DNA of 64,000 bases from Pseudomonadota bacterium (lineage in GTDB: Bacteria > Pseudomonadota > Gammaproteobacteria > Methylococcales > Methylococcaceae), in NCBI GenBank assembly GCA_041158345.1, contig JBEBBO010000008.1, forward strand, positions 841 to 64,840, given 5' to 3'. The stretch's first letter is position 1. Each line of letters opens with the position of its first letter. A program made the translations under genes and the position numbers. Below are positions 1-14,264 of this stretch, one piece after another. The notes under the pieces were generated by a model. That model was not told where the DNA came from, did not search any database, and saw only the letters and a list, made by a program, of their open reading frames with translations.

Positions 1-169
1 CGCCTCAGCCTTAAACCAATCATCGGCAGGGCACCCTCCCGAGAAACCGCGGCATTCAGCAATGTAATAAGCGGCCTCCGAAATCATTCGATGACGATCC
101 TCGGCATCCATGTAAACGGGGTTGGAGGGCTCTAAATTGCTTTTTGATTCAACGTTACTAGTCTTCACA
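1..169 (-). CDS. DUF2934-like small protein (3' end lies outside the window)
   Basis: The minus-strand frame is open to the window edge. The translation ...MDAEDRHRMISEAAYYIAECRGFSGGCPADDWFKAEA fits the DUF2934 pattern (AY.IAE.RGF..G...DDW..AE). An in-frame GTG at 169 is preceded by GAGGTGA, and an alternative ATG lies at 111. Confidence 0.45.
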
Positions 170-1445: not shown

Positions 1446-2357
1446 ATGGAGCTGAAATTGCACTCGGAACCGCACCAGTTTGAAGAACTCGTCGACTTGA
1501 TCAGCGACTATGAGAAGTGTTTTGGAGGGGGGAGCCACTATGAGATTTTAGAAAGTCTCAATCTGTCCGAGGCAATTCACGCGCTTAGACTATCGATCGG
1601 CACCCGAACCCGCCTGAGACTCCCCAGTTGTCCCAGAGGGATCAAGACGCCCCGGCGCAGTGATGGCCTGGATGCGTATCGTGAAGACCGTATGGAAATG
1701 GTTCGAACGATACTTCGGTACCAGAATCTTTCGATTACTGACCGCCGCGTCCTTCGCGCAATGCGGCAGGTTCCCAGGGAATGCTTTGTCCCCTCAATCT
1801 TCCGTCCCGTTGCGTATCGGGATAGCCCGCTCCCCATTGGCTGGGGACAAACGATTTCACAACCTTATGTCATTGCTCTGATGACTGCGCTGCTCAGGCT
1901 GAAAGGGGAAGAGGCCGTATTGGAGTTGGGAACAGGCTCAGGCTATCAGGCAGCCATTCTCAGCTGTCTGACAAAGTGGGTGCATTCGATCGAAATTATT
2001 CCCGAGCTTGCAAGCAGGGCATCAAAAACGCTTAAGAAATTGGGTTACAAAAACGTTGCGGTCCGATCATCCAATGGCATCAACGGGTGGCCAGAAGAGG
2101 CCCCCTTCGACGGCATGCTGATTACTTGCGGCTCGACCCACTTCCCGACCCAGCTTGCCGCTCAGTTAAAGGTCGGTGGGAGGGCAGTAATGCCGATTGG
2201 TCCGGCAGGGGTTCAATCACTCACTCTCGTGACCAAGCATCAGGATCATATTGAACAAGAGCCAATCATTCCCGTGCGGTTTGTACCCTTAATGGGCTTT
2301 GAAAGGAGAGATCAAGACGTGAAGGTTGGGGATCGGGCTCATGGATACCCATCTTGA
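1446..2357 (+). CDS. pcm: protein-L-isoaspartate O-methyltransferase
   Basis: The C-terminal ~220 aa carry PCMT hallmarks: QTISQPYVIALM, the SAM motif VLELGTGSGYQAAILS, and RFVPL near the end. The 82-aa N-terminal extension is unrecognised, and an alternative start at ATG 1692 (MEMVRTIL...) gives a canonical length. Confidence 0.85.
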   Translation: MELKLHSEPHQFEELVDLISDYEKCFGGGSHYEILESLNLSEAIHALRLSIGTRTRLRLPSCPRGIKTPRRSDGLDAYREDRMEMVRTILRYQNLSITDRRVLRAMRQVPRECFVPSIFRPVAYRDSPLPIGWGQTISQPYVIALMTALLRLKGEEAVLELGTGSGYQAAILSCLTKWVHSIEIIPELASRASKTLKKLGYKNVAVRSSNGINGWPEEAPFDGMLITCGSTHFPTQLAAQLKVGGRAVMPIGPAGVQSLTLVTKHQDHIEQEPIIPVRFVPLMGFERRDQDVKVGDRAHGYPS

Positions 2358-3000
2358 TGGCCAGTGCAACCAGTTCTGCCGCATTTTTGACTGCGAGTTT
2401 TTCCAGGATCCGGCTTCGGTGAATTTCGGCTGTACGCGGGCTAATCCCCAGCGCACGTCCAATCATCTTCGCGGTAAATCCCTTACAGATGTATTGGGAG
2501 ATCTCTTGCTCCCTGGGCGTTAGCCGATTAAAGAGCACGGCAAGGCTTTCTTTTTTTGACCGCTCACGAAGCTTCTCTTCCGCAAGCTGGAACGCCCGTT
2601 CAATTGTCTCCATCAATTGTTCTGGGTTCACCGGTTTTTGCAGATAATCAAACGCGCCAGCACGCATACCTGAAACTGCAGAATCAATCCCTGGGTGGCC
2701 CGTAAGAAAGATGATAGGGCAAAACAAGCCATGCTTTTCATTCATGTAACTCTGCACCTCAAGACCATCCAGGTCCGGCATCAGAAGATCCATAACAATA
2801 ACGATGGGTTGATTTGAGGGGATGAATTCATCAAGGAATAATCGGCTAGAGCAATAGGTCGATACCCCAATCCCATGATGAGAAATCAGGTCGGCGATCG
2901 CCTCGCACACCGATGGATCATCATCCACAATAATCACCGTCCTGACGTTAGACGCAAGTTCTTTCTTTTGATTTCTATTGCTTATTCTCATGAGAACCAT
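2266..3000 (-). CDS. response regulator, FixJ/NarL (LuxR-type HTH) family
   Basis: Receiver domain (VIIVDDDPSV...MDLLMPDLDG...FLTGH...DYLQKP) followed by a LuxR-type HTH (LTPREQEISQYICKGFTAKMIGRALGISPRTAEIHRSRILEKL). Confidence 0.85.
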   Translation of the reverse strand: MVLMRISNRNQKKELASNVRTVIIVDDDPSVCEAIADLISHHGIGVSTYCSSRLFLDEFIPSNQPIVIVMDLLMPDLDGLEVQSYMNEKHGLFCPIIFLTGHPGIDSAVSGMRAGAFDYLQKPVNPEQLMETIERAFQLAEEKLRERSKKESLAVLFNRLTPREQEISQYICKGFTAKMIGRALGISPRTAEIHRSRILEKLAVKNAAELVALAIKMGIHEPDPQPSRLDLSFQSPLRVQTARE

Positions 3001-3299: not shown

Positions 3300-3797
3300 T
3301 TAATTTCTTGTCCAAGCAATTCGCACAAGATAATCACCATCGACATATTCCGTATCGAGAGTACCCGAATAGGTCTCCACCATGCAGTCGCCGATCAATG
3401 ATGTCAGATGCGGCTCAGTGAATGTGATGACCTGGCTTCCATCCGCGTGTTTGACACTCCCCATAAGCCTTTTTAAGGGATGTGCCATGCCTTGGCGATC
3501 GATGATCCCGGAAATCATGGCTTCAATCTCGTTGCGATGATGTCTGAAATAGTTTCCTCGCAAGGTGAGGTACCCGGCCGGAAAGCGTTCCCTTATTCGC
3601 TGACAGGCGGGACAGAGACGCCTTTCCGCATCCAGTTGGTACATGAACCAGCACCAACGCCCTGAGGAGTAGAGCGCTCCGCAATCCGGACAGACACACG
3701 GATCCGGCCATTTCCGACGAATTTGATAAGGATCGTGCTGCCACTCCGGTATGTATTGAATAGAGTGTTCAATCAGGGGGTGATTGATCTGATTCAT
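3300..3797 (-). CDS. NMD3-like zinc-ribbon protein (BCAM0308-type family)
   Basis: Two CxxC pairs (CPDCGALY...CPACQRI) are followed by FPAGYLTLRG...HPLKR...FTEP. It is a clear paralog of 11207-11713. The family name is recalled from memory. Confidence 0.6.
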   Translation of the reverse strand: MNQINHPLIEHSIQYIPEWQHDPYQIRRKWPDPCVCPDCGALYSSGRWCWFMYQLDAERRLCPACQRIRERFPAGYLTLRGNYFRHHRNEIEAMISGIIDRQGMAHPLKRLMGSVKHADGSQVITFTEPHLTSLIGDCMVETYSGTLDTEYVDGDYLVRIAWTRN

Positions 3798-4222
3798 ATA
3801 TGGCCTAACTAATGGTAAGGAGTTAAAGCACCCCCACCGTCGGAGGCTCCCACACCTCCGATCTTAGATATCCAGGCCGTTGGAATAAATACGAACAACT
3901 ACCTAATCCCCAATCGCATCTCACAATCACACAGAGATGCAGTCTCACAATTAAAGGGATGAAATGAATGAGCCCACAAAGAATCCTTTGAAGATTTCTC
4001 CAAGGCCGGTGCCAGGACCTCTTCGCTAAGACCGGATTATCTAGGATGGTTTAAGACTAGTTATTTATCCGTATAGTCATTGAATTCAGTACCTCTAAAC
4101 TGGCCTTCAGTGGATGGGGTTGGGTTAATTCGCCCATTGATCATTAATAGGTGTTTTCTCCTATTCCTCAGAAACTGTGTATTGGGCATTTTGCCTCCAA
4201 TTATTTTATAGAGGACATTATT

Positions 4223-4579
4223 ATGAATACTTTGACTAAAGGACTTTCGCTGGTTGCACTGATCGCCGCCGTCAATGTTGCAACTGCAGGGGAACCCATT
4301 GAACTGGCCAGTGCAGATCTGGATCAGATCACTGCGGGTGCCCTTTATGCACCAAATACGCGCCACAACGCCCCGTCTGTCTCATTCTCAGCCGTGGTAG
4401 GACCCAGCGCGCTGGCCATTGGCAGAACCACGCTTGCTAATGCGTCGTTTGCTAATGCCGTAACCAATGGTTCCAGCATGGCAGCCACTGAATCAGCGGG
4501 TCTGGCCGTAGCAAGCGGACCGTTTGGCGCGGTGTCCTATGTGAATACCGGTTCTGCCGTCTCTATGCTCACTCACTGA
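4223..4579 (+). CDS. secreted A/S/G/T/V-rich precursor peptide (118 aa) with a Sec signal plus a double-glycine-like leader
   Basis: The ATG at 4223 lies within track ORF 4151-4579. The signal peptide is MNTLTKGLSLVALIAAVNVATA, followed by ELASADLDQITAG (LSxxELxxIxGG-like). The 79-aa remainder has no Cys and is rich in A, S, G, V, T and N. Confidence 0.6.
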   Translation: MNTLTKGLSLVALIAAVNVATAGEPIELASADLDQITAGALYAPNTRHNAPSVSFSAVVGPSALAIGRTTLANASFANAVTNGSSMAATESAGLAVASGPFGAVSYVNTGSAVSMLTH

Positions 4580-4663
4580 GTAGAGGAGGCTCTAATGATG
4601 GTTATGGTGAGTGATTATGCGGTCGATCTCACCACCATTATTTAGAAAAAGCCATCCTTGCGT

Positions 4664-4691
4664 GTCGGGGCTATGACCTTATAGCCCCGAC
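4664..4691 (+). terminator. intercistronic stem-loop (possible attenuator or partial terminator)
   Basis: GTCGGGGCTAT / ATAGCCCCGAC forms an 11-bp perfect stem with a 6-nt loop, followed by the U-containing TCTATTACT. It sits between the peptide gene and the C39 gene. Confidence 0.35.
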
Positions 4692-4726
4692 TCTATTACT
4701 CAACCGCTGTAACCGAATCACCATCG

Positions 4727-5350
4727 ATGAGAGCACCTCTTGTGAAGAAGCGCTTGCTGATAGGTTTCACATGTCTAATCAGATCCATGGCAATCCCTGC
4801 AGAACCTGTGCATTCCCTGACGGAATTAAGACAAAAGAACGTCATGATGCAGAAGTGGGACATTAGTTGCGGAGCTGCCGCCATTGGAACCATTTTAAGG
4901 TATCACCACGGACTGGATATCTCAGAAAAGGATATTGCCATTTCGCTTATGCAGCGGGATGAATACATCAAGAACCCCCAGCTTGTCAGAATGCGACTTG
5001 GATTCTCATTACTCGACATCAAAAGATATGTCGAGAGTGTTGGCTATATCGGACTGGGTCTGGGTGGACTGCAACTCGCCGATCTGATTGAACGTGCCCC
5101 GGTTATGGTGACCGTCGTTATCAATGGTTACAACCATTTCGTGGTCTTTAGGGGAATCAAGAGGAATCGGGTGTTATTAGCCGATCCCGCATGGGGAAAC
5201 CGAACCCTGACGGTGGATCAGTTCATGGATATGTGGGCGGAAGCTCCCAAGATAGGCCGGGTGGGATTACAGATTATGTCTCCCATCAACGATGAAAAAG
5301 GACCTGAGTCGCTTAATCCACAAGATACCGACTTTATTTCATTTCACTAA
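4727..5350 (+). CDS. stand-alone C39-family cysteine peptidase with an N-terminal signal-like segment (FapD-like)
   Basis: The motif QKWDISCGAAA places Gln 6 residues before the catalytic Cys. In NHFVVFRG...LLADP the His and Asp are 16 residues apart, which is the canonical C39 spacing. The N-terminus KKRLLIGFTCLIRSMAIPA is hydrophobic, and there is no ABC-transporter fusion. Confidence 0.8.
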   Translation: MRAPLVKKRLLIGFTCLIRSMAIPAEPVHSLTELRQKNVMMQKWDISCGAAAIGTILRYHHGLDISEKDIAISLMQRDEYIKNPQLVRMRLGFSLLDIKRYVESVGYIGLGLGGLQLADLIERAPVMVTVVINGYNHFVVFRGIKRNRVLLADPAWGNRTLTVDQFMDMWAEAPKIGRVGLQIMSPINDEKGPESLNPQDTDFISFH

Positions 5351-5376
5351 TTGGATATCCGAGGATATTACACCGA

Positions 5377-6540
5377 ATGAGGGTGGCGACGATGTATCAG
5401 GTTTTATTGTTGATCGGTCTCCTGACGGGCTCCCTTGCAGGAGAGGCATCGACACGGCCGAGGAAAGTACAGACACCTCTAGAACAGTTACTCTTAGAGC
5501 GCGATCTGCAAATTCAAAGCCTTTTGAATCGCGTGGAAGCGCTGGAAAGCAGAGAGTTAAAACCCGCCTTACCGGTGACAGCCGAATCAAAGGTTGAAAC
5601 AAGTGGTCCGAAGCAATCAACATCCGTCCCAGTCAAAAAGTCGCGCCCAACACCGTCTAAATCGAAAACAGAGCTCGCGGATGGAGAGGACGCAGAGCGG
5701 GCCTTAGAGCGGACTCTGGTCATTAGCGGTGCATCGCTCGTTCCCTACGGACAGGGCGAAGTCCAGCCTGGATTCAACTATCTCCGATATTCGAGCGAAG
5801 GATCGGCTTTATTTCAACAGGGCTCTGCCGTCAGCCTAGCAACAACCAGGGCACACAGTGACATGTATGTGGGTAGTGCCTATGTTCGTCTAGGTCTCCC
5901 CTGGGAGTCCCAACTCGAAACCTACGTCCCGTATGAATCCATCAACCGAACAGATACGTCGATTTCAAATGCATCCATCCTCACATCCGCCAATCGGTCC
6001 GCCAACAGTTTTGGTGATATCCGTTTGGGACTCGCAAAAACCTTGCTGACAGAAAAAAGCTGGTGGCCTGATGTCATTGCGCGCATCACATGGAGTGCGG
6101 ATACGGGAGCCACTCCGTATCTGATTCCCTTGGGATCGGGCTTCAACGAACTGAATGGATCCGTCACGCTATCCAAACGTCAGGATCCCCTGGTCTTTTA
6201 TGGAACAGTTTCCTATCAAGCCGCGTTTTCCAAGGACAACCGATCACCCGGAAACACCCTTGGCTTCGTCATTGGGACCGTTATGGCGGCAAGTCCTGAA
6301 ACCTCGCTCCGGTTTTTCATCAATCAGAATTTTATCTCCGATGCGGAGTTTTACGGAAAAACCATTCAGGGCACTGCCACGAATAGCAGTATGCTGAACA
6401 TAGGCGCTGCATCCGTGCTAGGCAAGGGGTTATTTCTGGACTTCACCTCCGGAATTGGCCTGACTCGGGCTTCTCCAGACTATTCGGTCGGGGTTTCGTT
6501 TGCCTATCGATTCGACCTTCCATTTCTTCCAGCGCTTTAG
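5377..6540 (+). CDS. outer-membrane beta-barrel protein with N-terminal coiled coil and low-complexity linker (FapF-like architecture)
   Basis: Signal peptide MYQVLLLIGLLTGSLAGEA, with a probable start at ATG 5392 preceded by GAGGGTGG. A heptad-like segment LEQLLLERDLQIQSLLNRVEALESRE follows, then a P/S/K/T-rich linker. The last ~270 aa show alternating beta-strand patterns, including FGDIRLGLAK and a terminal SFAYRF. Confidence 0.65.
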   Translation: MRVATMYQVLLLIGLLTGSLAGEASTRPRKVQTPLEQLLLERDLQIQSLLNRVEALESRELKPALPVTAESKVETSGPKQSTSVPVKKSRPTPSKSKTELADGEDAERALERTLVISGASLVPYGQGEVQPGFNYLRYSSEGSALFQQGSAVSLATTRAHSDMYVGSAYVRLGLPWESQLETYVPYESINRTDTSISNASILTSANRSANSFGDIRLGLAKTLLTEKSWWPDVIARITWSADTGATPYLIPLGSGFNELNGSVTLSKRQDPLVFYGTVSYQAAFSKDNRSPGNTLGFVIGTVMAASPETSLRFFINQNFISDAEFYGKTIQGTATNSSMLNIGAASVLGKGLFLDFTSGIGLTRASPDYSVGVSFAYRFDLPFLPAL

Positions 6541-6761
6541 AAAAGCGGGTCGTACCCCAAATAAGCGGATTCTTGGTCTTGACTGATGGAACTTACTACG
6601 GGATGTCCACCTTTAGCTCTGACATATTGTTCTATCGTGCAAGGCTCCGATCCACTAAAGCCAATGAGGGTTGTCACCCTCTGGCGCAGTTGCGGGTCAT
6701 AAATATCAGAGAAAGCTTCAGCCGAAGCGATAAGCAATACCGGTAAGGTCAGTCGTTTCAT
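6537..6761 (-). CDS. small secreted hypothetical protein
   Basis: An internal ATG at 6761 gives MKRLTLPVLLIASAEA (signal-like). No family recognised. Confidence 0.3.
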   Translation of the reverse strand: MKRLTLPVLLIASAEAFSDIYDPQLRQRVTTLIGFSGSEPCTIEQYVRAKGGHPVVSSISQDQESAYLGYDPLF

Positions 6762-7066
6762 ACCTTTATCTCGCTGAGCTCCTTGAGTTAATTGATCACT
6801 GGCAGACCGATCAAGGCATCCCATGTCTCGTCCTAGCCGGCAACAGGCCCCTGTCGAATCGATGAAAAGTGAAGGATCAAAGGCGGATGCTAAAGACCAT
6901 CATTCCCAGAAATAGCAAAGCCCTCGCTGACAACTTGATTTTTTAAAGCCGTCCTCTTTACGCAGCATCGTGACACGCACTAGGCGTTGAAGATTCGGAT
7001 GGACTGTAGCGCCCGAAATTTAAAACCATCTATCCATAGGAATACCTAATCTGTAGACATCAGGAA

Positions 7067-7309
7067 TCATGTAAGCAGATGTAATGCAAACCATGGAACC
7101 AGGGTCAGCAGGATGATTCCGATCTTATACCCACCCAAGAGAATAAAGTGGCATGCATCAAACCTCGCAATTGGCATTGGAAAGAAACGTGATTGCAGGG
7201 AATAGATCTGGTCGCGCCATCCCACCAGAATCATTGAAGAAATAACCAAGATCCCATAATTAAAGATAAACGACCATAGCAAAAACGTTTTTATTGCTTC
7301 CAAGGACAT
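7067..7309 (-). CDS. small membrane protein (80 aa, 2-3 hydrophobic helices)
   Basis: ORF with a GAGGG box upstream and clearly hydrophobic segments. Confidence 0.4.
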   Translation of the reverse strand: MSLEAIKTFLLWSFIFNYGILVISSMILVGWRDQIYSLQSRFFPMPIARFDACHFILLGGYKIGIILLTLVPWFALHLLT

Positions 7310-7427: not shown

Positions 7428-7694
7428 CTACTCCCATCGGGGCCTAGTTCTGCGATCCATTCGCGGACTCTGTTGTTTTCGCAAAAGACTTTGAAGGTTG
7501 CCGTTCAATTCATATGTAAAGATGGGGTCCCAGTCCGCTCTCAAACCTGTCTCAATCGCTTCAGATAAAATGTCATTAAGGATACCAACCGTTCTTTGTC
7601 GCTGACAGACCTGTAGAACAGAACGCAGCGTATCCTCATCCTCTGGATACCGGTCAAGGTACTTCGCAAGCATAAGATAATCAATAACCTTCAT
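7428..7694 (-). CDS. hypothetical protein (88 aa)
   Basis: ORF with GGAGGT 6 nt upstream of the ATG. Confidence 0.4.
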   Translation of the reverse strand: MKVIDYLMLAKYLDRYPEDEDTLRSVLQVCQRQRTVGILNDILSEAIETGLRADWDPIFTYELNGNLQSLLRKQQSPRMDRRTRPRWE

Positions 7695-7919
7695 ACCCTA
7701 CCTCCACAGGACGCAGTCCTGATATGGGTTAGCCAATATAAGTTAGTATAACAACCTGGTTTTACCAACATATCAGAGATGGGTCTCTGATGTCTGTATT
7801 CAACCTCACCTAGGTATTTCGACGAATAGAATGGCGTCATGCGTCCTGATCTGATTCTTGCGATGCCTGCGAGGTATATCACTGGGCAGAAACCAATCAC
7901 TCTGCACTCGGAGTCCCCT

Positions 7920-8375
7920 ATGAAATCTTCCATCGCCATTATTCTTTTGACCCTTTCCTTCCTTCCCGCTCACGCGGGTGTCGCGGGGAAAGCCGAAACC
8001 CCATCCTCCATGATCCAATGCAATGACGTGGAAAAGCATCCAAAGTCCCTACAGCAGTCGCTTAACGAACTGGAGACCAACCTCAAGCTCACGAGCACCC
8101 AAGCCCCGCTCTGGGAGGAATGGTCTGCAAAACTCATAACTGCGCATCAGATCAAGGATAAATTCAAAAAGGATGAGCAAGAGCGGCGTAAACTCCCTGC
8201 GCCTCTTCGACAAGAGCAATGGATGGCGTCCGTTCAGGAGCACCTCAATGCCATGAAGGCCAGTCTCCCCTTTTTGAAATCCCTGTATTCAAGTTTCAAT
8301 GGTGATCAGAAATCGCTTTTCGACCATGAAGTCCCCTTCAAACATCACGCAAACAGCCATTGTGGTAACGAATAG
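7920..8375 (+). CDS. periplasmic LTXXQ-motif (Spy/CpxP-like) protein
   Basis: The internal ATG at 7920 gives the signal peptide MKSSIAIILLTLSFLPAHA. The rest is helical and K/E/Q-rich and contains LKLTSTQ (an LTXXQ motif). Confidence 0.5.
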   Translation: MKSSIAIILLTLSFLPAHAGVAGKAETPSSMIQCNDVEKHPKSLQQSLNELETNLKLTSTQAPLWEEWSAKLITAHQIKDKFKKDEQERRKLPAPLRQEQWMASVQEHLNAMKASLPFLKSLYSSFNGDQKSLFDHEVPFKHHANSHCGNE

Positions 8376-8523: not shown

Positions 8524-8970
8524 TCAGACTCGAATGGCAGGCGGCCTTTGTGTGGTGACATGGAGATCGGCCAGCGCTGCAATGCCCTCGGCAAGCACCT
8601 CCATCACATCCGAGCTACTCAGGATCCCCTTCAGAAGGCCCTGATCATCCACAACCGGGACTCGCCGTACGCCTCGATCCCGCATCTTTTCTACCGTGAG
8701 GTTTAAGTCGTCCGTCTCTCGCGCTAGGACGAGGTCCTGGCACATGATTTCGGAGACAGGTACATCGGCCCGGTCCCACTCTTTACGTACGATATCGAGA
8801 ACAATGTCGCGATCGGTCAGAATTCCAATCGGCTTCTGCGCACCATTTGCCCCCTCGACTATCACCACCGAGCCGACATCGTGTTCACGCATCAGTTTTG
8901 CAGCCTGTGAGACCTTGGCATCCCTCCGCGCGACGACGACTTCTCGATTACATATCTCTCCACAATTCAT
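8524..8970 (-). CDS. CBS-pair domain protein
   Basis: Two CBS-like repeats (VSQAAKLMREHDVGSVVIVE... and LNLTVEKMRDRGVRRVPVVDDQGLLKGILSSSDV). The ATG at 8970 is preceded by AGGAG. Confidence 0.8.
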   Translation of the reverse strand: MNCGEICNREVVVARRDAKVSQAAKLMREHDVGSVVIVEGANGAQKPIGILTDRDIVLDIVRKEWDRADVPVSEIMCQDLVLARETDDLNLTVEKMRDRGVRRVPVVDDQGLLKGILSSSDVMEVLAEGIAALADLHVTTQRPPAIRV

Positions 8971-9167
8971 GATGATCTCCTGAGTTTGGGTTGACCCGGC
9001 GGTGCCCACGACAGGGACTGCCGGATATGAATTGTGCAAACTAAATCTCCCATCTCACGTGGTAAATACGTGAACATCAGGACGTAACATCTCTGATTAT
9101 GAGCAGTTCTAGGAAATCGTACTGATCGACTCACATCCGCAATCAGGGTCCTAATTGACGGACTCAT

Positions 9168-10382
9168 TTGCTGGAAAACCTCATGGAAAATCCTTTTGCC
9201 TTCATCGGGTGCCCTACCCGTTGCATATCCAAAGTCAGGACCTCTGCAGATGTCAGCCGGGCCCTGACTTCGTCCTTTATTCTGTTTATCGTTCTGATAT
9301 CCCCCGGGATTTCAGGGCGTGAGTTGAACGCAGAGTGCGATCTTTCCGACGTTCCCTCGAGTCATCTTGCGGGTGACATTCGCTCCGAAATCAGTGATCG
9401 GGAACTGACGGCAGACGAATTGCGAACGATTGAAGTTTTTGAAAAGACCAAATCTTCCGTCGTTTTCATTAATACCCTCAGAAGGGTGCGTGATCCCTAC
9501 AAGAAACGGGCCTTTGCACTCACAACAGGATCCGGAAGTGGTTTCGTTTGGGATCGCAATGGCCACATCGTCACCAACCATCATGTGATGGCAGAGGCCG
9601 AAGAGATTACGGTCCGAATGCCGGATCGACGGGAACTGCATGCAAAACTAGTGGGCGTAAGTGCCGCTTATGACCTTGCAGTAATCAAAGTGGATTTCCC
9701 GCGCCCCCCCCCTCACCCGCTCAGGCTTTTCGATAGCACCTCACTTCGGGTGGGACAAAGAACGCTGGCCATTGGTAACCCTTTCGGTCTTGACCTGACC
9801 TTAACGTCCGGCGTGGTCTCCGCTCTCGACCGAAGTTTGATGGATGATGAAGGCAATCTGATTCAACACCTCATCCAGACGGATGCGGCAATCAACCCCG
9901 GTAACTCAGGTGGCCCCCTTCTGGATTCCAGAGGAAATCTCATCGGAATGAATACCGCCATCTTCAGTAGCTCTGGAACCAGCACGGGGGTTGGCTTTGC
10001 CATACCAACGAATACACTGAATCGAGTGATTCCCAGCCTCATTCGAGAGGGTCACTATCTTCGCCCATCCCTTGGAATCCGCGTTGATGATGGCATCAAC
10101 AAACTCGCTCAAAGCAAAATGGGATATCAGGGCGTTATGGTAATTGCTGTAGAGCAAGGTTCGCCCGCCGACCGAGGGGGGCTTCGTGGAAGCCAATTCG
10201 ACCGACTGGGCAATTTTCGGGCAGGTGACATTATCTCTGCCGTCGACGATGCACCGGTCCATAGCGTTGAAGACCTTTTGAAACATCTCGAAGAAAAGAC
10301 GGTCGGTCAAACCGTTCAAGTCCGATTTCAGCGGGAGGGTGTTTCCAGGCTGGTCAGCCTGACCCTCGATGCACTAGGCTGA
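9168..10382 (+). CDS. HtrA/DegP-family serine protease with one PDZ domain
   Basis: Catalytic-triad context HIVTNHHV, D in YDLAVIK, and GNSGGPLLD, with a C-terminal PDZ-like region. The track start at 9168 is TTG, and an ATG at 9183 is an alternative. Confidence 0.9.
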   Translation: MLENLMENPFAFIGCPTRCISKVRTSADVSRALTSSFILFIVLISPGISGRELNAECDLSDVPSSHLAGDIRSEISDRELTADELRTIEVFEKTKSSVVFINTLRRVRDPYKKRAFALTTGSGSGFVWDRNGHIVTNHHVMAEAEEITVRMPDRRELHAKLVGVSAAYDLAVIKVDFPRPPPHPLRLFDSTSLRVGQRTLAIGNPFGLDLTLTSGVVSALDRSLMDDEGNLIQHLIQTDAAINPGNSGGPLLDSRGNLIGMNTAIFSSSGTSTGVGFAIPTNTLNRVIPSLIREGHYLRPSLGIRVDDGINKLAQSKMGYQGVMVIAVEQGSPADRGGLRGSQFDRLGNFRAGDIISAVDDAPVHSVEDLLKHLEEKTVGQTVQVRFQREGVSRLVSLTLDALG

Positions 10383-10490
10383 GTCTTGATGGGCCAAGCT
10401 TCGATTTTGGCCATTTCCCCATCTCTCTCTTTCTAATCGACATTCAGAAACGATGCGTTAGAGACCAGCGACAATTACCGGCCCGCTGAT

Positions 10491-11156
10491 TTATGCGGGT
10501 GAGATCAGTTGAATGGTGTCATTCTTGGGATTATTAACCGCCACAGGGGCGCGATGACACTCCATTCTCTCTGAAGCCATCGGGCGAAGAAACCGTTGCA
10601 ATTTGAAGGCTTCCGATGTTTTCGGATCCATCCAGGCATCGTAATCCTCAGGTTCCAGAATCACCGGCATCCGGGGGTGGATCGGGCGCATTTTCTCATT
10701 AGCGACCGTCACGATAATGGAGCAGGTTTCCAAAACCATGCTGTCTCTTTCCCAGCGCTCCCAGATACCCGCAAAAGCAAAAGGATGACCGCCGATGAGT
10801 CGAAAAAAATAGGGTTGTTTATGCCCATCCGATTCTTTATGCCACTCGAAGAACCCATCGGCGGCAATCAAGCATCTTCTCTGCTTGAACGCTGACCGGA
10901 ATGCAGGCTTGTCTGCGATCGTCTCGGCGCGCGCATTGATCGTTGAGAACTCGGTTCGGGGCTCGCTCGACCAGGAAGGGACGAGCCCCCACTTCAAAAG
11001 AGCCAGCTCACGTTGGCCATGGGCATCGTATCTTGCAACAAGAACCTGGCTACTCGGGGGAATGTTGTAGCTGGGGCGAGCCGCAGGTTTACCCTTTGCC
11101 GAAAACAATTCCGCAAACGTGGACATATCGCTGAATCGAACATAACGACCGCACAT
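10491..11156 (-). CDS. SOS-response-associated peptidase (SRAP/YedK-like abasic-site processing protein)
   Basis: N-terminal MCGRY with the catalytic Cys2. The family pattern YNIPPS...LKWGLVPSW...INARAET...PMPVIL is present. Confidence 0.9.
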   Translation of the reverse strand: MCGRYVRFSDMSTFAELFSAKGKPAARPSYNIPPSSQVLVARYDAHGQRELALLKWGLVPSWSSEPRTEFSTINARAETIADKPAFRSAFKQRRCLIAADGFFEWHKESDGHKQPYFFRLIGGHPFAFAGIWERWERDSMVLETCSIIVTVANEKMRPIHPRMPVILEPEDYDAWMDPKTSEAFKLQRFLRPMASERMECHRAPVAVNNPKNDTIQLISPA

Positions 11157-11206
11157 CAGAGTTCAAGCGTCCTTTCCGGTTAAACAAGACCCCTTCAACA
11201 CCCGAT

Positions 11207-11713
11207 TCAAGACCAACGCGTCCACCACACACGGAGCAGAAATTCTCCAGGCTGGTAGTCGAACTTCAATTCCCCTTTGTAGGCATCATAAAGCGCCTCA
11301 CCCACAGCCCTTGCCAACTGCGGGTCCGTGAATGTCATGCACGTCTGACCTTCGGCCGCTTGGTGCGTTTCAATGACTCTTTTCAGGGGATGTTCCGCCT
11401 TTTCTTTCATTTCAACATTCACGATCAGATGGTTAATCTCGGGTTCGTGTTGTCTATAAAAGTCTCCGCCAATCGTCAGGAATCCCGCGGGGCAGCGGTC
11501 TTTGATTCGCCTACAAGCCGGACATAATTTGAGCACTGCGTATGAATCAGCTTTCTGCCACGTCCATCGCCCTTTGTGATAGCTCGCACCACATTCGGCA
11601 CAAGCACTCGGTTCCGCTAATTTTTCCTGGCCATGATAGGGATCATGCTGAAGCTCTCTCAGATTTCTAATTTGGAAAGCTTGTTCATGGTGTTCAAAGC
11701 GATGCGTGGACAT
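11207..11713 (-). CDS. NMD3-like zinc-ribbon protein, paralog of 3300-3797
   Basis: Same architecture as the paralog: HDPY, CAECGASY...CPACRRI, CPAGFLTIGG, HPLKR, FTDP and a terminal W(T)R. Confidence 0.6.
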   Translation of the reverse strand: MSTHRFEHHEQAFQIRNLRELQHDPYHGQEKLAEPSACAECGASYHKGRWTWQKADSYAVLKLCPACRRIKDRCPAGFLTIGGDFYRQHEPEINHLIVNVEMKEKAEHPLKRVIETHQAAEGQTCMTFTDPQLARAVGEALYDAYKGELKFDYQPGEFLLRVWWTRWS

Positions 11714-11767
11714 ATTTAACTCCCCTCCGCTTCGAACGAGTCAATAGAGCAAAATTTAGTCATGGGC

Positions 11768-13690
11768 TTACTCCTTTTGAATCCAAGATCTGATCATCGT
11801 GCCATTCACCTCCTCGTGATCCATCAACTCCTGGATGATCCGCTCAAGCGCTTTTTGATGGGCCGATAACGTGTTGATGGCGACTCCTTCAGCCTCCCCC
11901 ACGATTCGGCGAATTTCTGAATCAATTCGCTCGGATGAAACTTCACTGAAATCAAGCGATTCAGTCTCTTCATGCTCTAGAAAAAATAGTCGTTGGCGAT
12001 GACCCAAAACGACAGGTCCAAATGTAGGACTCATTCCCCATTCACACACCATCTTTCGAGCAATTGTATTGGCCGTGTGCAGATCATTCGAAGCGCCATT
12101 GGAGTAGCTTCCAAACCGCATTTTCTCTGCGGCCCGGCCAGCCAAAAGGACCGTGATCTGATCCCAAAGCTGGGGCTCGGTTAAAAAGAATCGTTCCTGT
12201 TCTGGCGATTGCAGCGTGAATCCCAAGGCAGCCGCACCCCTTGGGATGATGGAGACCTTCTGGACAGGCTCGGCATTGGGCAGCAATTCCGCCACCAGAG
12301 CATGGCCGGCTTCATGGCAGGCCACCCGTTGTTTTTCATCCGCGGAGAGCAAAATGGAACGCTTTTCAGGTCCCGCAATGACACGCTCGATGGCGGTTTC
12401 AAAATGCGTCATTTGAATGCATGGCGCATCATCCCTGACCGCCAAAATGGCTGCCTCATTACAGATATTGGCAAGATCTGCACCGACTAATCCTGCCGTT
12501 CTTTTGGCAATGACATGAAGATCCATATCGGTTCCAAGAACCAGCGAACGGGCATGCAGCTGCAATATGGCCTCTCTGTCCTCAAGACCTGGCTTATCCA
12601 CGACAATCTGACGATCAAATCGCCCCGCTCTCAGAAGCGCTCGATCCAGAATTTCGGGTCGGTTGGTTGCCGCCATCACAATGATGCCCGCCGAAGGATC
12701 AAATCCATCCATCTCGGTCAGAAGCTGGTTGAGCGTCTGCTCCCTTTCGTCATGCGCACCGAGAGGGTTGACCCCCCCTCGGCTTCGTCCAATGGCGTCG
12801 AGTTCATCAATGAAGATCATGCAGGGTGCGTGCTCCCGAGCTTGCTCAAAAAGCTCCCGTACACGAGCCGCCCCAACACCGACAAAGATCTCCATAAATT
12901 CAGCCCCGCTGATGTTGTAGAAAGGAACCCCTGCTTCCCCTGCAACGGCACGAGCCAGCAAGGTCTTACCCGTCCCAGGCGCGCCGACCAACAGTAAGCC
13001 TTTCGGCATTCGCCCTCCGAGCCGTTGAATTCTTTGGGGATCCTTGAGAAAGGTAATGGCCTCCTGAAGTTCCTGTTTGGCCTCACGCGTTCCCGCGACG
13101 TCATCAAATTTAAGTCGATTTGCATTCCCCTGGATCAAGGGAATCATGGGTTTTCGCTTGCCAAACCATGCCCCTCCCCCACTCTGAATTTGCTTTGAGA
13201 TGAAAAGCATCAACCCCATCATCAGGATGAAAGGAAGAAGCCAAATGAGCAGGAATGAGAATAAATCGGATTCTTCGATCGCACGGAATGTGATCTTTCT
13301 TGCCGTCAATTTTTGGATGAGATCTGGATCTTCTACCCTCAGGCTGAAAAAGGGCGATTGCCGCCTCCCTTCTTGACCTAAAAGTCCTTGAATTTGCCTT
13401 TGAGAAATCCGAAGGTCAGCCACCTCACCAAGATCCACTCTGGAGAGAAATTCGGCATAGCTGATTTCGTGCTCGATGTTTTTTGAAATGACATGACTGA
13501 AAACCCCCAAAGTAAGGGCCACGATGCAGATAAGAAACCATCTCGGCTTCCCGGATGGGAAGGGGATTTGTTCAGAAACTCCAGACCCAATCGATCGGCA
13601 AAACCTTCCGATCCGATTAAAAATCCGAACGGACCGGAGAGCCTCCTCATGGGGATGCAGCACGGGCTCTGTCTTTTCTCTTTTACTCAT
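11768..13690 (-). CDS. ftsH: ATP-dependent zinc metalloprotease FtsH
   Basis: Walker A GAPGTGKT, Walker B IIFIDELD, SRH region, and the zinc site HEAGHALV. Two N-terminal TM helices. I chose the start at ATG 13690 (MSKREK..., 640 aa) because the longer track ORF would overlap the upstream gene. Confidence 0.9.
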
Positions 13691-13874
13691 GGCCACTCGT
13701 CGCCTCGGTGATTCGCCATTGATGCTGGACGATAAACAGGCCAGCCCCGACCGTCTGTGCGTAATCACACGAGGCATCCCGAAACAGAACTTGTCCATAA
13801 CACCGGATGCGATGAGAGGGGCTTCACTCCCTGAATATGTCCCTCGTGACATGTACATCCGAGAAGTGGGCTTT

Positions 13875-14264
13875 TTAAGGAATAGGCTTGCCACTTGGCG
13901 AGGCATTGGGAATGTGTCGCATACCCTCCTGGAGATGGCCAAACAGCTTTGCGCCCTCATCGGGATTGGCGCCACTCACCAGGATGGCCACGACGAGTTC
14001 CTCACCGAAGCGCATGCACTCCACAACCGCGATTGTCTGATCGGACCAGGAGCGAACCGAGTCCGCATCAACCGTCACATGATGCGTGGCGTCTTTGAGT
14101 ACCCCGCTGGATGCCTGTTTGACACAGCCGGAACGATCATTGTCTCGACCCCAGTGGATATGGTCCCACCATAGATTGGGTGCCGCTTGGGCCATCATGG
14201 GTACACTATATAAAAGCCAGATACTCACGATGACCCGAACCCATTTAAAGTTTTCATTCTTCAT
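13875..14264 (-). CDS. secreted hypothetical protein (129 aa)
   Basis: Signal peptide MKNENFKWVRVIVSIWLLYSVPMMAQA, with AGAGGT upstream of the ATG. Confidence 0.45.
   Translation of the reverse strand: MKNENFKWVRVIVSIWLLYSVPMMAQAAPNLWWDHIHWGRDNDRSGCVKQASSGVLKDATHHVTVDADSVRSWSDQTIAVVECMRFGEELVVAILVSGANPDEGAKLFGHLQEGMRHIPNASPSGKPIP

Follow-up and report, generated by a model that had tools for sequence, protein, structure and literature searches.

Described systems with related machinery

The Fap functional-amyloid system of Pseudomonas pairs a Sec-exported stand-alone C39 peptidase, FapD, with the outer-membrane transporter FapF, a 12-stranded-type barrel with a plug helix, a disordered linker and an N-terminal coiled coil carrying an R-h-x-x-h-E motif that stabilises the trimer (PMC6173795). 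FapD acts in the periplasm and its catalytic Cys is required for secretion of FapC through FapF, although the substrate of the peptidase has not been identified (PMC5557850, PMC6173800). This "hybrid" system is the only studied case of a periplasmic C39 peptidase working with an outer-membrane polypeptide channel. Co-localised fapD/fapF homologues outside fap operons were already remarked upon in 2018 (PMC6173800). A second locus with this pair, encoding the Acinetobacter Fil pilus (FilA-F), contains the C39 peptidase FilB and the barrel FilC together with the pilus subunit FilA (PMC11784438).

Two further systems bear on the comparison. Peptidase-containing ABC transporters (PCATs; for example colicin V/CvaB, ComA, LahT and PCAT1) use a C39 domain fused to the transporter to process, in the cytoplasm, an N-terminal double-glycine leader, and export across the outer membrane uses TolC. 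Double-glycine peptidases of the C39 family cleave after a Gly-Gly, Gly-Ala or Ala-Gly leader in the substrate. Such leaders are thought of as Sec-independent signals for ABC exporters. Curli (CsgA/CsgG, type VIII secretion) export unfolded beta-rich subunits by a two-step route, Sec followed by a dedicated outer-membrane channel, but without a peptidase.

Organisation of the locus

The locus described here lies in a stretch of 64,000 nucleotides of Methylococcaceae DNA (GCA_041158345.1, contig JBEBBO010000008.1), referred to below as the window. Three co-directional genes encode a small precursor protein (the cargo), a stand-alone C39 peptidase and a predicted outer-membrane barrel (Table 1). 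A sequence-only reading had proposed this trio, preceded by an AT-rich intergenic region, as a compact relative of Fap with a swapped cargo, possibly secreting a fibre subunit, amyloid or bacteriocin-like peptide. The features on which that reading was built are all present in the DNA.

Table 1. Coordinates of the cassette and its surroundings within the 64-kb window.
Positions	Strand	Feature	Residues
2266-3000	-	FixJ/LuxR-type response regulator, divergently oriented upstream; possible but unproven regulator of the cassette	
3798-4222	+	AT-rich 425-nt intergenic region; presumed promoter and 5' UTR of the cassette	
4223-4579	+	Cargo gene	118 aa
4223-4288	+	Predicted Sec signal peptide, MNTLTKGLSLVALIAAVNVATA	1-22
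4289-4339	+	Double-glycine-type propeptide, GEPIELASADLDQITAG; predicted C39 cleavage after G39	23-39
4340-4579	+	Cys-free core of 79 aa, plus stop	40-118
4594-4691	+	Two stable hairpins in the cargo-to-peptidase spacer; candidate partial terminator or mRNA-stabilising element	
about 4594-4643	+	First hairpin	
4664-4691	+	Second hairpin, perfect 11-bp stem (arms 4664-4674 and 4681-4691)	
4727-5350	+	Stand-alone C39 cysteine peptidase, FapD/FilB relative	207 aa; signal-peptide-like segment 1-25; Q42, C48, H137, D153
5377-6540	+	FapF-like outer-membrane transporter (predicted)	387 aa
	+	Signal helix	3-20
5476-5556	+	N-terminal helix	34-60
5530-5547	+	R-V-E-A-L-E motif	52-57
	+	Disordered P/S/K/T-rich linker	61-96
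5665-5727	+	Plug-like helix	97-117
5752-6516	+	Beta-barrel strands	126-380

An AGGA Shine-Dalgarno sequence lies 8 nt before the ATG of the cargo gene, which favours this start over a GTG at 4151, and NCBI also calls a protein of 118 aa. The core is 72% A/S/G/V/T/N.

The peptidase matches Pfam Peptidase_C39 (PF03412) at 51.7 bits against a gathering score of 22. Its catalytic Cys and His, together with the oxyanion Gln and the orienting Asp, are invariant in 29 homologues, with Q 6 residues before C and H and D 16 residues apart, as the sequence-only reading had stated. The protein is not fused to an ABC transporter, and none is adjacent. Its N-terminus reads MRAPLVKKRLLIGFTCLIRSMAIPA, and 73 of 76 family members have a comparable hydrophobic extension. 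However, in the window protein the h-region is short and interrupted by Arg, and one gene caller starts the protein at M21, which would remove the signal; the periplasmic location is hence a prediction from sequence heuristics.

Relationship of the peptidase and the barrel to Fap and Fil

The analogy with Fap is backed by homology. The best NCBIfam hits of the peptidase are FapD (NF058616, 96.5 bits against an equivalog cut-off of 330) and FilB (93.4 against 475), and those of the barrel are FapF (NF058560, 39.8 against 700) and FilC (21.2 against 630). All are far below cut-off, and identity to an Aeromonas Fap operon is only 40.5% for the peptidase and 24.6% for the barrel. The AlphaFold2 model of the peptidase (pLDDT 88.7) has its best fold matches in the PCAT1 peptidase domain with substrate, LahT150 with its leader and the ComA peptidase domain.

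For the barrel, FapF is the only PDB sequence hit. The AlphaFold2 monomer model (pLDDT 86.9) shows the FapF architecture, and Foldseek ranks the FapF chains 5o67/5o65/5o68 first (E 2.6e-19, TM 0.78), followed by the COG4313 channel 4rl8. R52, L56 and E57 are near-invariant, and the R-h-x-x-h-E motif is present in 49 of 56 family barrels, which gives indirect support to an inferred trimer.

The interpretation offered by the sequence-only reading is supported, with corrections. Of the findings it had named in advance as fatal, three could be examined and none was obtained: the trio is syntenic elsewhere, the peptidase family has signal-peptide-like N-termini, and the barrel is FapF-like rather than porin-like. 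Further, the cleavage it implied after ...TAG, giving a 79-aa product, coincides with a family-wide double-glycine-type motif. However, Fap is not, as had been suggested, the only described system with this pair, because the Fil locus has FilB/FilC homologues. Neither is the cassette a unique minimal relic, but a member of a large clade, and as the equivalog cut-offs are not reached it is a relative of Fap and not a Fap system.

The gene content differs from both precedents. No FapA/B/C/E homologues and no N/Q-rich repeat subunits are encoded in the window or in 84 related loci. The Fil locus resembles the present one in that a FilB/FilC-like pair sits immediately after the gene for a small secreted fibre subunit. 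FilA, however, is a 279-aa DUF6160 protein (NF050077), whereas the window cargo has no DUF6160 or FilA hit, and the FadL-like FilD, FilE and FilF, which are present with FilA in the genuine fil locus examined (L088), are absent here. As in Fap, the cargo is predicted to be Sec-dependent and is probably unfolded during export.

Conservation of the gene trio

At least 542 species genomes encode a close C39 relative. Among 84 loci, the barrel is adjacent to the peptidase gene in 75 by blastp and in 81 by looser clustering, across several proteobacterial classes. Leader-bearing small ORFs occur in 73 of the 84 loci, with 1-6 per locus; of these ORFs, 151 of 169 lie on the C39 strand and most are upstream. 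No other gene is conserved: no immunity, chaperone or ABC gene was found in these loci, and the other apparently conserved clusters are antisense-ORF artefacts or variable regulators.

The cargo cores are, in contrast, hypervariable. The 189 family cargo proteins fall into 53 clusters, often occur as tandem paralogues and have a median core length of 75 aa. Close homologues of the window core are rare, with P0002 (59% identity) in 5.8 billion proteins and, in an HMM search of 1.84 billion representatives, a single true core homologue (P0243). Pfam and NCBIfam searches gave no family for the window cargo or for 12 other cargo proteins. Three units of about 22 residues seemed discernible by eye in the window cargo, but self-alignment scored no better than shuffles (p = 0.51; 0.20 for the L001 homologue), and internal repeats were rejected.

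A double-glycine-type leader behind a predicted signal peptide

The new finding is the architecture of the cargo. A Sec signal peptide, predicted from a Lys n-region, a hydrophobic core and an A-T-A motif, is followed by a conserved 17-residue propeptide, AEPvxL(T/S)xxQMDxVTAG. The signal peptide assignment rests on heuristics, although 186 of 189 family cargo proteins have a hydrophobic h-region upstream of the leader. The propeptide matches the double-glycine leader register (L-12, E/Q-8, L/M-7, V/I-4, A/G-2, G-1), with L-12 at 99%, Q-8 at 67%, M/L-7 at 99%, D-6 at 98%, V/I-4 at 97%, A-2 at 95% (A/G 99%) and G-1 at 100% in the family. It should, however, be noted that the motif seeds were chosen with a regular expression covering -7 to -1, so that conservation at those positions is partly imposed; positions -16, -15, -11 and -8 were not imposed, and -12 was only loosely constrained.

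The leader HMM hits the window cargo at E 2.1e-7, the only hit in the window. The window leader scores 25.5 bits on the family PSSM, which also scores the colicin V leader at +19.6 bits and 10 of 13 known double-glycine leaders at p <= 0.005 on positions -12 to -3 alone. In common with the PCAT systems, the peptidase fold and catalytic set and the leader register are the same, and the leader is conserved while the cores are hypervariable. The arrangement differs in that the peptidase is stand-alone and predicted to be periplasmic, the leader is internal, and a dedicated barrel would take the place of TolC.

The Fap and Fil operons examined lack this leader. The leader HMM found nothing in the Aeromonas fap locus, the Cupriavidus fap-like locus or the A. 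baumannii fil locus (best E 0.64). FilA has a signal peptide followed by a short conserved ...LSAATGQ segment that looks loosely similar, but the FilA N-terminus and the look-alike segments (FilA ...MDDAALSAATGQ; FapE ...LADGELAHLRGR) score negatively on the PSSM. The idea that Fap and Fil use the same leader is therefore not supported, and the precedent systems do not confirm the recognition rule. Literature searches found no description of this cargo or leader class beyond the 2018 remark on fapD/fapF homologues.

Proposed mechanism

The best explanation, to which a probability of roughly 0.7 is assigned, is a three-gene, two-step secretion cassette of the FapD/FapF type, belonging to a large, unnamed sister clade of the Fap amyloid and Fil pilus machineries. 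In this view, the precursor would cross the inner membrane through Sec and be cut by signal peptidase I after A-T-A (residue 22), leaving a periplasmic intermediate that begins with GEPIELASADLDQITAG. The Sec-exported peptidase would recognise this amphipathic leader (L-12, L-7, I-4, A-2, G-1) and cleave after Ala-Gly, at the candidate site ...ITAG|A, which is conserved family-wide. The unfolded Ala/Ser/Gly/Thr/Val-rich core would then be released or handed over to the neighbouring FapF-like barrel, closed by a plug helix and trimerised by a periplasmic coiled coil, and leave the cell through it. A hairpin-rich spacer after the cargo gene probably keeps cargo transcripts in excess over machinery transcripts. 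By analogy with FapC and FilA, the exported product is most likely a beta-rich surface or matrix fibre subunit.

The analysis itself establishes the homology, the predicted folds, the catalytic residues, the synteny and the conservation of the leader. Localisation, the cleavage and its site, processing and export through the barrel, trimer formation and the function of the product are, on the other hand, inferred, without experimental data for this clade. The fibre reading in particular is by analogy only, as the window core has no detectable repeats and no family assignment. A hint comes from cargo cores of Oxalobacteraceae in related loci, some of which weakly resemble a single curlin repeat: Curlin_rpt hits 5 of 20 at best E 4.7e-4, below the gathering score, and hhalign against CsgA gives E 0.0035 at a probability of 9%. 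The window cargo shows no curlin similarity, and the curli channel CsgG is unrelated to the barrel.

A broader reading remains tentative, with odds slightly below even. The cassette may represent a widespread outer-membrane secretion pathway, not described as such, in at least 542 species of Alpha-, Beta- and Gammaproteobacteria including methanotrophs and nitrifiers. Its substrates would carry a tandem address, a Sec signal peptide followed by a microcin-type double-glycine leader that is removed in the periplasm by a FapD-family peptidase before exit through a FapF-family trimeric pore. The hypervariable, often multi-copy cargo would be short beta-rich subunits that assemble outside the cell, in Oxalobacteraceae as single curlin-like repeats that stack into amyloid. 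If so, the clade supplies the substrate-recognition rule for periplasmic C39 peptidases that is missing for FapD.

The locus matters because it makes the question of what such a peptidase cuts testable, offering a three-gene model with an obvious, strongly conserved candidate cleavage motif. Here a double-glycine leader appears to be placed behind a Sec signal peptide and used in the periplasm. The clade is common in methanotrophs, ammonia and nitrite oxidisers, sulfur oxidisers and Oxalobacteraceae, and its probably abundant extracellular products could matter for biofilm or floc formation in environmental and wastewater communities. Further, a compact cargo-plus-two-gene exporter might be useful for secreting small proteins from Gram-negative hosts.

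Alternative explanations

The alternative that survives best, although unlikely, is a microcin or bacteriocin cassette in which the same machinery exports an A/G/S-rich antimicrobial or competition factor, the hypervariable cores reflecting an arms race with competitors. The sequence-only reading had listed this option. The leader is quantitatively closest to that of colicin V (microcin V), and the small, Gly/Ala/Ser-rich, hypervariable cores, often tandem, resemble class II microcin loci. However, no conserved immunity-like or other accessory gene accompanies the trio in the 84 loci, no ABC or PCAT exporter is present, and the homologous characterised machineries export the fibre subunits FapC and FilA. 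Most cores are also Cys-free and, on a comparison that was not rigorous, seem to lack the C-terminal receptor-binding modules of known microcins.

More doubtful is the possibility that the conserved motif is a targeting or chaperoning signal rather than a cleavage site, with the peptidase binding the leader, or acting on the linker or plug of the barrel to gate it, and the cargo leaving with the propeptide attached. This follows the speculative model of Rouse et al., who proposed that FapD may act on FapE or on the FapF linker and noted that some C39-like domains act as chaperones (PMC5557850, PMC6173800), and the barrel does have a long disordered linker. Nevertheless, the invariant catalytic set argues for proteolysis rather than a C39-like chaperone domain, the invariance at -1 and -2 is what a scissile site requires and exceeds what a binding helix needs, and the linker of the window barrel contains no leader-like motif.

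A coincidental neighbourhood, in which the barrel is a COG4313/Phenol_MetA_deg-type uptake channel for hydrophobic compounds unrelated to the peptide and the peptidase, is very unlikely: PF13557 is the only Pfam hit of the barrel but at 20.4 bits falls below its gathering score of 22, and although several homologues do carry PF13557, so that the families are related, and 4rl8 is the second-best fold match, FapF chains outrank 4rl8 by 7 orders of magnitude in E-value, the conserved synteny already largely refutes this reading, and the barrel has the FapF-type coiled coil and trimerisation motif, an equivalent of which COG4313 channels such as 4rl8 may or may not have.

Flanking regions and spacer

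The upstream intergenic region has a GC content of 42.8% against 52.8% for the window, within the lowest 0.7% of 425-nt windows. A sigma-70 scan found no + strand promoter in it, and a sigma-54-like GG-N10-GC element looked for by eye near 4184-4196 does not fit in spacing. Rfam gave no match anywhere in the window, and no tRNA was found. The divergent upstream regulator has Response_reg and GerE domains, with FixJ as its best NCBIfam hit. A homologous regulator is present in 19 of the 84 loci, while other loci carry LysR (15) or sigma-54 activators (8), so the regulator is not a fixed part of the system.

The spacer between cargo and peptidase is structured. The RNA fold of 4575-4730 gives -57.8 kcal/mol (z = -5.5), with 0 of 200 shuffles as stable, and the arms of the inverted repeat are 100% complementary. 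The function of the hairpins is inferred; in a reduced form of the analysis, the equivalent spacer is structured in 22 other loci (median z -2.8).

Gene content of the cassette

The sequence-only reading had described three co-directional genes, namely a precursor peptide, a stand-alone C39 peptidase and an outer-membrane barrel, behind a 425-nt intergenic region that looked AT-rich, and this observation held exactly as described. The three ORFs encode proteins of 118, 207 and 387 aa. Although the cargo ORF could be extended to a GTG at 4151, an AGGA sits 8 nt upstream of the ATG at 4223, and NCBI's annotation of the same contig uses the 118-aa form. The upstream gap has a GC content of 42.8% against 52.8% for the window, which places it in the lowest 0.7% of windows of that size. 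In the public record (MAG Pseudomonadota bacterium, RL333_45 to RL333_47), all three products are annotated as hypothetical proteins.

Coordinates of the cassette, its neighbours and the features discussed in related loci
Sequence	Coordinates	Strand	Feature
Window	1446-2357		Protein-L-isoaspartate O-methyltransferase with an 80-residue N-terminal extension
Window	2266-3000	-	FixJ-type response regulator
Window	3300-3797	-	BCAM0308 family paralogue (NF040826)
Window	3798-4222		425-nt upstream gap
Window	4072-4097		Imperfect palindrome (TATAGTCATTGAATTCAGTACCTCTA)
Window	4223-4579		Cargo ORF, 118 aa
Window	4727-5350		C39 peptidase ORF, 207 aa
Window	5377-6540		Barrel ORF, 387 aa
Window	7067-7309	-	DUF6868 membrane protein
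Window	7428-7694	-	88-aa protein with no family
Window	7839-8375	+	LTXXQ (CpxP/Spy-like) periplasmic protein
Window	8524-9039	-	CBS-pair protein
Window	9168-10382	+	HtrA/DegP-family serine protease
Window	10491-11156	-	SRAP/YedK-like protein
Window	11207-11713	-	BCAM0308 family paralogue (NF040826)
Window	11768-13975	-	Putative FtsH
L001 (65%-related metagenome contig)	5486-6820		Region syntenic with the genes that follow the cassette
L087 (Aeromonas fap operon)	6547-7194		FapE-position ORF
L088 (A. baumannii fil locus)	5263-6108		FilA
L088 (A. baumannii fil locus)	6403-6840 and 6850-7242		FilB reading frame, split into two ORFs
L089 (Cupriavidus fap-like locus)	3536-4024		Protein encoded next to the FapD/FilB-type peptidase

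The peptidase

The second protein matches Pfam Peptidase_C39 at 51.7 bits (gathering score 22). In an alignment of 29 homologues, Q42, C48, H137 and D153 are invariant, which confirms the spacing noted from the sequence alone, with Q lying 6 residues before C, and H and D being 16 apart. An AlphaFold2 model (pLDDT 88.7) found its best PDB fold matches among double-glycine peptidase domains, including PCAT1 bound to its substrate (6v9z), LahT150 with a leader peptide (6mpz) and the ComA peptidase domain. The protein is not fused to an ABC transporter. Its first 25 residues (MRAPLVKKRLLIGFTCLIRSMAIPA) resemble a signal peptide as judged by inspection rather than by a dedicated predictor, although one gene call starts the protein at M21. 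Further, 73 of 76 family members have a hydrophobic N-terminal extension ahead of the conserved (R)PVxSL start of the domain.

The predicted barrel

With a 53-sequence alignment, AlphaFold2 gave a model of the third protein with a pLDDT of 86.9, comprising a signal helix (residues 3-20), a helix (34-60), a disordered Pro/Ser/Lys/Thr-rich segment (61-96), a second helix (97-117) and a beta-barrel (126-380). A Foldseek search against the PDB ranked 18 FapF chains first (E 2.6e-19, target TM 0.78), followed by the COG4313 channel 4rl8 at 3e-12, and by sequence FapF is the only PDB hit. The N-terminal helix contains R52-V-E-A-L56-E57, in which R52, L56 and E57 are at least 90% conserved, and an R-h-x-x-h-E match lies upstream of the plug motif in 49 of 56 full-length family barrels. 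This is the trimerisation motif that Rouse et al. found conserved in the FapF coiled coil, where its mutation destabilises the trimer (PMC6173795). The proposal of a coiled-coil-bearing barrel is therefore supported as far as monomer modelling allows. Some barrel homologues (proteins P0170 and P0199) carry a hit to an AMIN domain (PF11741) or a LysM domain (PF01476), and these may be peptidoglycan-binding N-terminal modules replacing or supplementing the coiled coil, although this is inferred from the hits without their positions.

Relation to Fap and Fil

The best NCBIfam hits for the peptidase are FapD (96.5 bits, cut-off 330) and FilB (93.4, cut-off 475), while those for the barrel are FapF (39.8, cut-off 700) and FilC (21.2, cut-off 630). 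Against an Aeromonas fap operon retrieved from the plasmid collection (L087), identities are 40.5% for the peptidase and 24.6% for the barrel, whereas members of the window's own clade share about 54% and 35-45%, respectively. The cassette is therefore a member of a homologous sister clade and not a Fap or Fil system, and the other Fap genes (A/B/C/E) and Fil genes (FilA/DUF6160, FadL-like FilD, FilE and FilF) are absent. The interpretation first drawn from the sequence, that of a compact relative of Fap with an unrelated cargo, was thus supported at the level of homology.

Distribution and synteny

The peptidase has more than 1,000 close homologues in the protein collection, and a pattern scan of one genome per species found at least 542 genomes with a relative. 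These include Methylobacter, Methylococcus, Nitrosomonas, Nitrosospira, Nitrococcus, Noviherbaspirillum, Sulfuriferula and Thiocapsa, plus many alphaproteobacterial MAGs. Cultured carriers include Methylobacter marinus A45, Nitrosospira briensis Nsp8 and Noviherbaspirillum spp. In 84 non-redundant loci, a barrel homologue lies next to the peptidase in 75 by blastp and in 81 by looser clustering, most exceptions being cut by contig ends. Clustering of every ORF of these loci showed that only three gene families are conserved, namely the peptidase, the barrel and the small cargo proteins. In contrast, the regulators vary, with a FixJ/LuxR-type response regulator in 19 loci including the window, LysR in 15 and sigma-54 activators in 8. 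The three-gene cassette is thus the conserved functional unit, as had been proposed from the sequence. Some loci (L039, L067 and L083) carry two C39 genes and/or two barrel genes a few kb apart, the second pair being much more divergent (19.9% and 24.1% barrel identity in L067 and L083), which suggests duplicated or co-resident systems.

The cargo leader

The window's cargo core is almost an orphan, with one 59%-identical homologue in 5.8 billion proteins and one more among 1.84 billion representatives. The small proteins next to the peptidase in other genomes share no core similarity with it, but they share an N-terminal architecture in which a hydrophobic signal-peptide-like segment, present in 186 of 189, is followed immediately by a conserved propeptide. 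In the window's cargo this propeptide (GEPIELASADLDQITAG) is predicted to end at Gly39, ahead of a core that would start at Ala40 (ALYAPN). A leader HMM found 207 instances in 73 of 84 loci, with 1-6 per locus; of these, 151 of 169 are on the peptidase's strand and 124 are upstream of it. In the whole 64-kb window the HMM hits only the cargo ORF (E 2.1e-7; next best 1.2). No Pfam or NCBIfam model covers these proteins.

Position frequencies in the family leader, numbered back from the predicted cleavage site
Position	Residue(s)	Frequency
-16	E	49%
-15	P	71%
-12	L	99%
-11	T/S	73%
-8	Q/E	82%
-7	M/L	99%
-6	D	98%
-4	V/I	97%
-3	T/S	95%
-2	A	95%
-1	G	100%

It should be noted that positions -7 to -1 were partly imposed by the seed pattern, whereas positions -16, -15, -11 and -8 were not, and -12 was only loosely constrained to L/I/V/M/F/A/T. 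The register is that of the classical double-glycine leader of the Havarstein-type consensus (L-12, S-11, E-8, L-7, I-4, G-2, G-1). To test the match, a PSSM was built from 169 unique family 12-mers and used to score 13 well-known double-glycine leaders in the fixed register. Ten of the 13 beat residue shuffles at p <= 0.005 on positions -12 to -3 alone. The colicin V leader (LTLNELDSVSGG) scores +19.6 bits, compared with a family median of 33 and a score of 25.5 for the window's LASADLDQITAG. A 330-aa protein made of repeats, each containing GAEP(V/I)ELKAADLSNITVDG (protein P0244), also matches the cargo leader region weakly (E 1.5e-4); it is probably an unrelated repeat domain, although the resemblance to the AEPxxLxxxxLxxIT motif is curious.

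Cargo cores

The cores have a median length of 75 aa (range 15-241) and a composition of A 15%, S 11%, G 11%, T 10% and V 8%. Of 189 cores, 152 are Cys-free, and they fall into 53 similarity clusters. The window's 79-aa core is 72% A/S/G/V/T/N and Cys-free, and it has no significant internal repeat. In Oxalobacteraceae (Noviherbaspirillum, Keguizhuia), 4-6 tandem genes encode 40-60-aa cores that end in ...QxN(I/A)SPVT(I/V)VQ...G.(G)N.A.V.SGNF..IRQ. Curlin_rpt is the Pfam family matched by the most members of this group (5 of 20; best E 4.7e-4, below the gathering score), and hhalign aligns the profile to CsgA repeat 4 (E 0.0035, probability 9%). This is a hint of amyloid-type cargo in the clade and not proof, and it does not apply to the window's core. 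In loci L003, L009, L012, L014, L031, L042, L043 and L051 (Noviherbaspirillum, Keguizhuia and other Oxalobacteraceae), arrays of 3-6 cargo genes have 40-60-aa cores ending in a single curlin-like unit (SPVTxVQ...GxGNxAxVxSGNFxxIRQ), the barrel gene is on the opposite strand downstream of the array, and sigma-54 activators or LysR regulators are nearby. These cargo proteins may be single-repeat amyloid subunits.

Fap and Fil substrates

The leader HMM found nothing in the Aeromonas fap locus (L087), the Cupriavidus fap-like locus (L089) or the A. baumannii fil locus (L088). FilA begins with a signal peptide followed by ...MQSMDDAALSAATGQDG, and Aeromonas FapE has ...PELADGELAHLRGRY; these look loosely related but score negatively on the PSSM. 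The tandem Sec plus double-glycine address is therefore, on present evidence, specific to this clade. Nevertheless, proteins encoded next to FapD/FilB carry short acidic-hydrophobic segments after their signal peptides, namely ...MDDAALSAATGQDG in A. baumannii FilA, ...PELADGELAHLRGRY in the Aeromonas FapE-position ORF and ...SSKLDDVRGGAE in the Cupriavidus protein. While they do not match this clade's leader model, these segments could be divergent recognition sites for their own C39 peptidases, and FapE is the Fap protein whose N-terminal ~70 residues are missing in proteomics (PMC5557850). In A. baumannii VB1190 (L088) the FilB peptidase reading frame is split, and the PLSDB table lists no CDS there, which may reflect a frameshift or pseudogene, or an assembly error.

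Proposed export pathway and product

In the best-supported model, all three proteins would be exported by Sec and signal peptidase would cleave the cargo after ATA22. The exposed 17-residue amphipathic propeptide would then be recognised by the periplasmic C39 enzyme and cleaved after Ala38-Gly39, and the unfolded core would pass through the plug-gated, coiled-coil-trimerised FapF-like barrel. Precedent comes from Fap, wherein FapD works in the periplasm and its catalytic Cys is required for FapC secretion through FapF (PMC5557850). While the homology, catalytic residues, synteny and leader conservation come from the analysis itself, the localisation of the proteins, cleavage, export, trimer formation and the function of the product are inferred. 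A probability of about 0.7 is placed on this pathway overall, and somewhat less on the exact scissile bond.

For the product, a surface or matrix fibre subunit is favoured, by analogy with FapC and FilA and in view of the curlin-like relatives. A microcin-like role is unlikely but cannot be excluded given the colicin V-like leader and the hypervariable small cores. However, the absence of any conserved immunity gene in the loci examined argues against it.

The FapD/FapF pairing and its presence outside fap operons ("five additional phyla") were noted in 2018, without cargo analysis (PMC6173800), and NCBI curates the Acinetobacter FilB/FilC pair. Literature searches found no description of this clade, of its cargo, or of a Sec signal peptide followed by a double-glycine leader, although most subscription journals fell outside the literature searched, so that prior description cannot be excluded. 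The type of machinery is thus already known, whereas the cargo class, the leader logic and the breadth of the clade appear to be new.

Operon features and genomic neighbourhood

The 147-nt spacer between the cargo and the peptidase is predicted to fold into two strong hairpins (-57.8 kcal/mol, z -5.5). The equivalent spacers in 22 other loci are also more structured than shuffles (median z -2.8; 73% below -2), although this is a rough estimate based on mononucleotide shuffles. By inference, this fits a partial terminator or stabiliser that keeps subunit mRNA in excess, as in fimbrial operons. The peptidase and barrel genes are 26 nt apart, with a GAGGA upstream of the barrel start. The imperfect palindrome in the AT-rich upstream region lies about 130 nt before the cargo start and is a possible operator for the neighbouring response regulator, a suggestion that rests on the window's sequence alone.

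Two paralogues of the BCAM0308 family flank the cassette region (NCBIfam NF040826, 146 and 171.6 bits, both above cut-off). The short name of this model begins with 'lxa', the low-oxygen-activated locus of Burkholderia, and a FixJ-type response regulator also lies nearby, which suggests a low-oxygen or stress regulon context for the neighbourhood. The DUF6868 membrane protein, the 88-aa protein and the LTXXQ protein that follow the cassette are syntenic in L001, where a DUF4214 protein is inserted, but they are not conserved across the wider clade. Beyond them, the region 8524-13975 is an envelope and protein-quality-control neighbourhood, in which the FtsH assignment was made by reading the sequence and not from a family profile.
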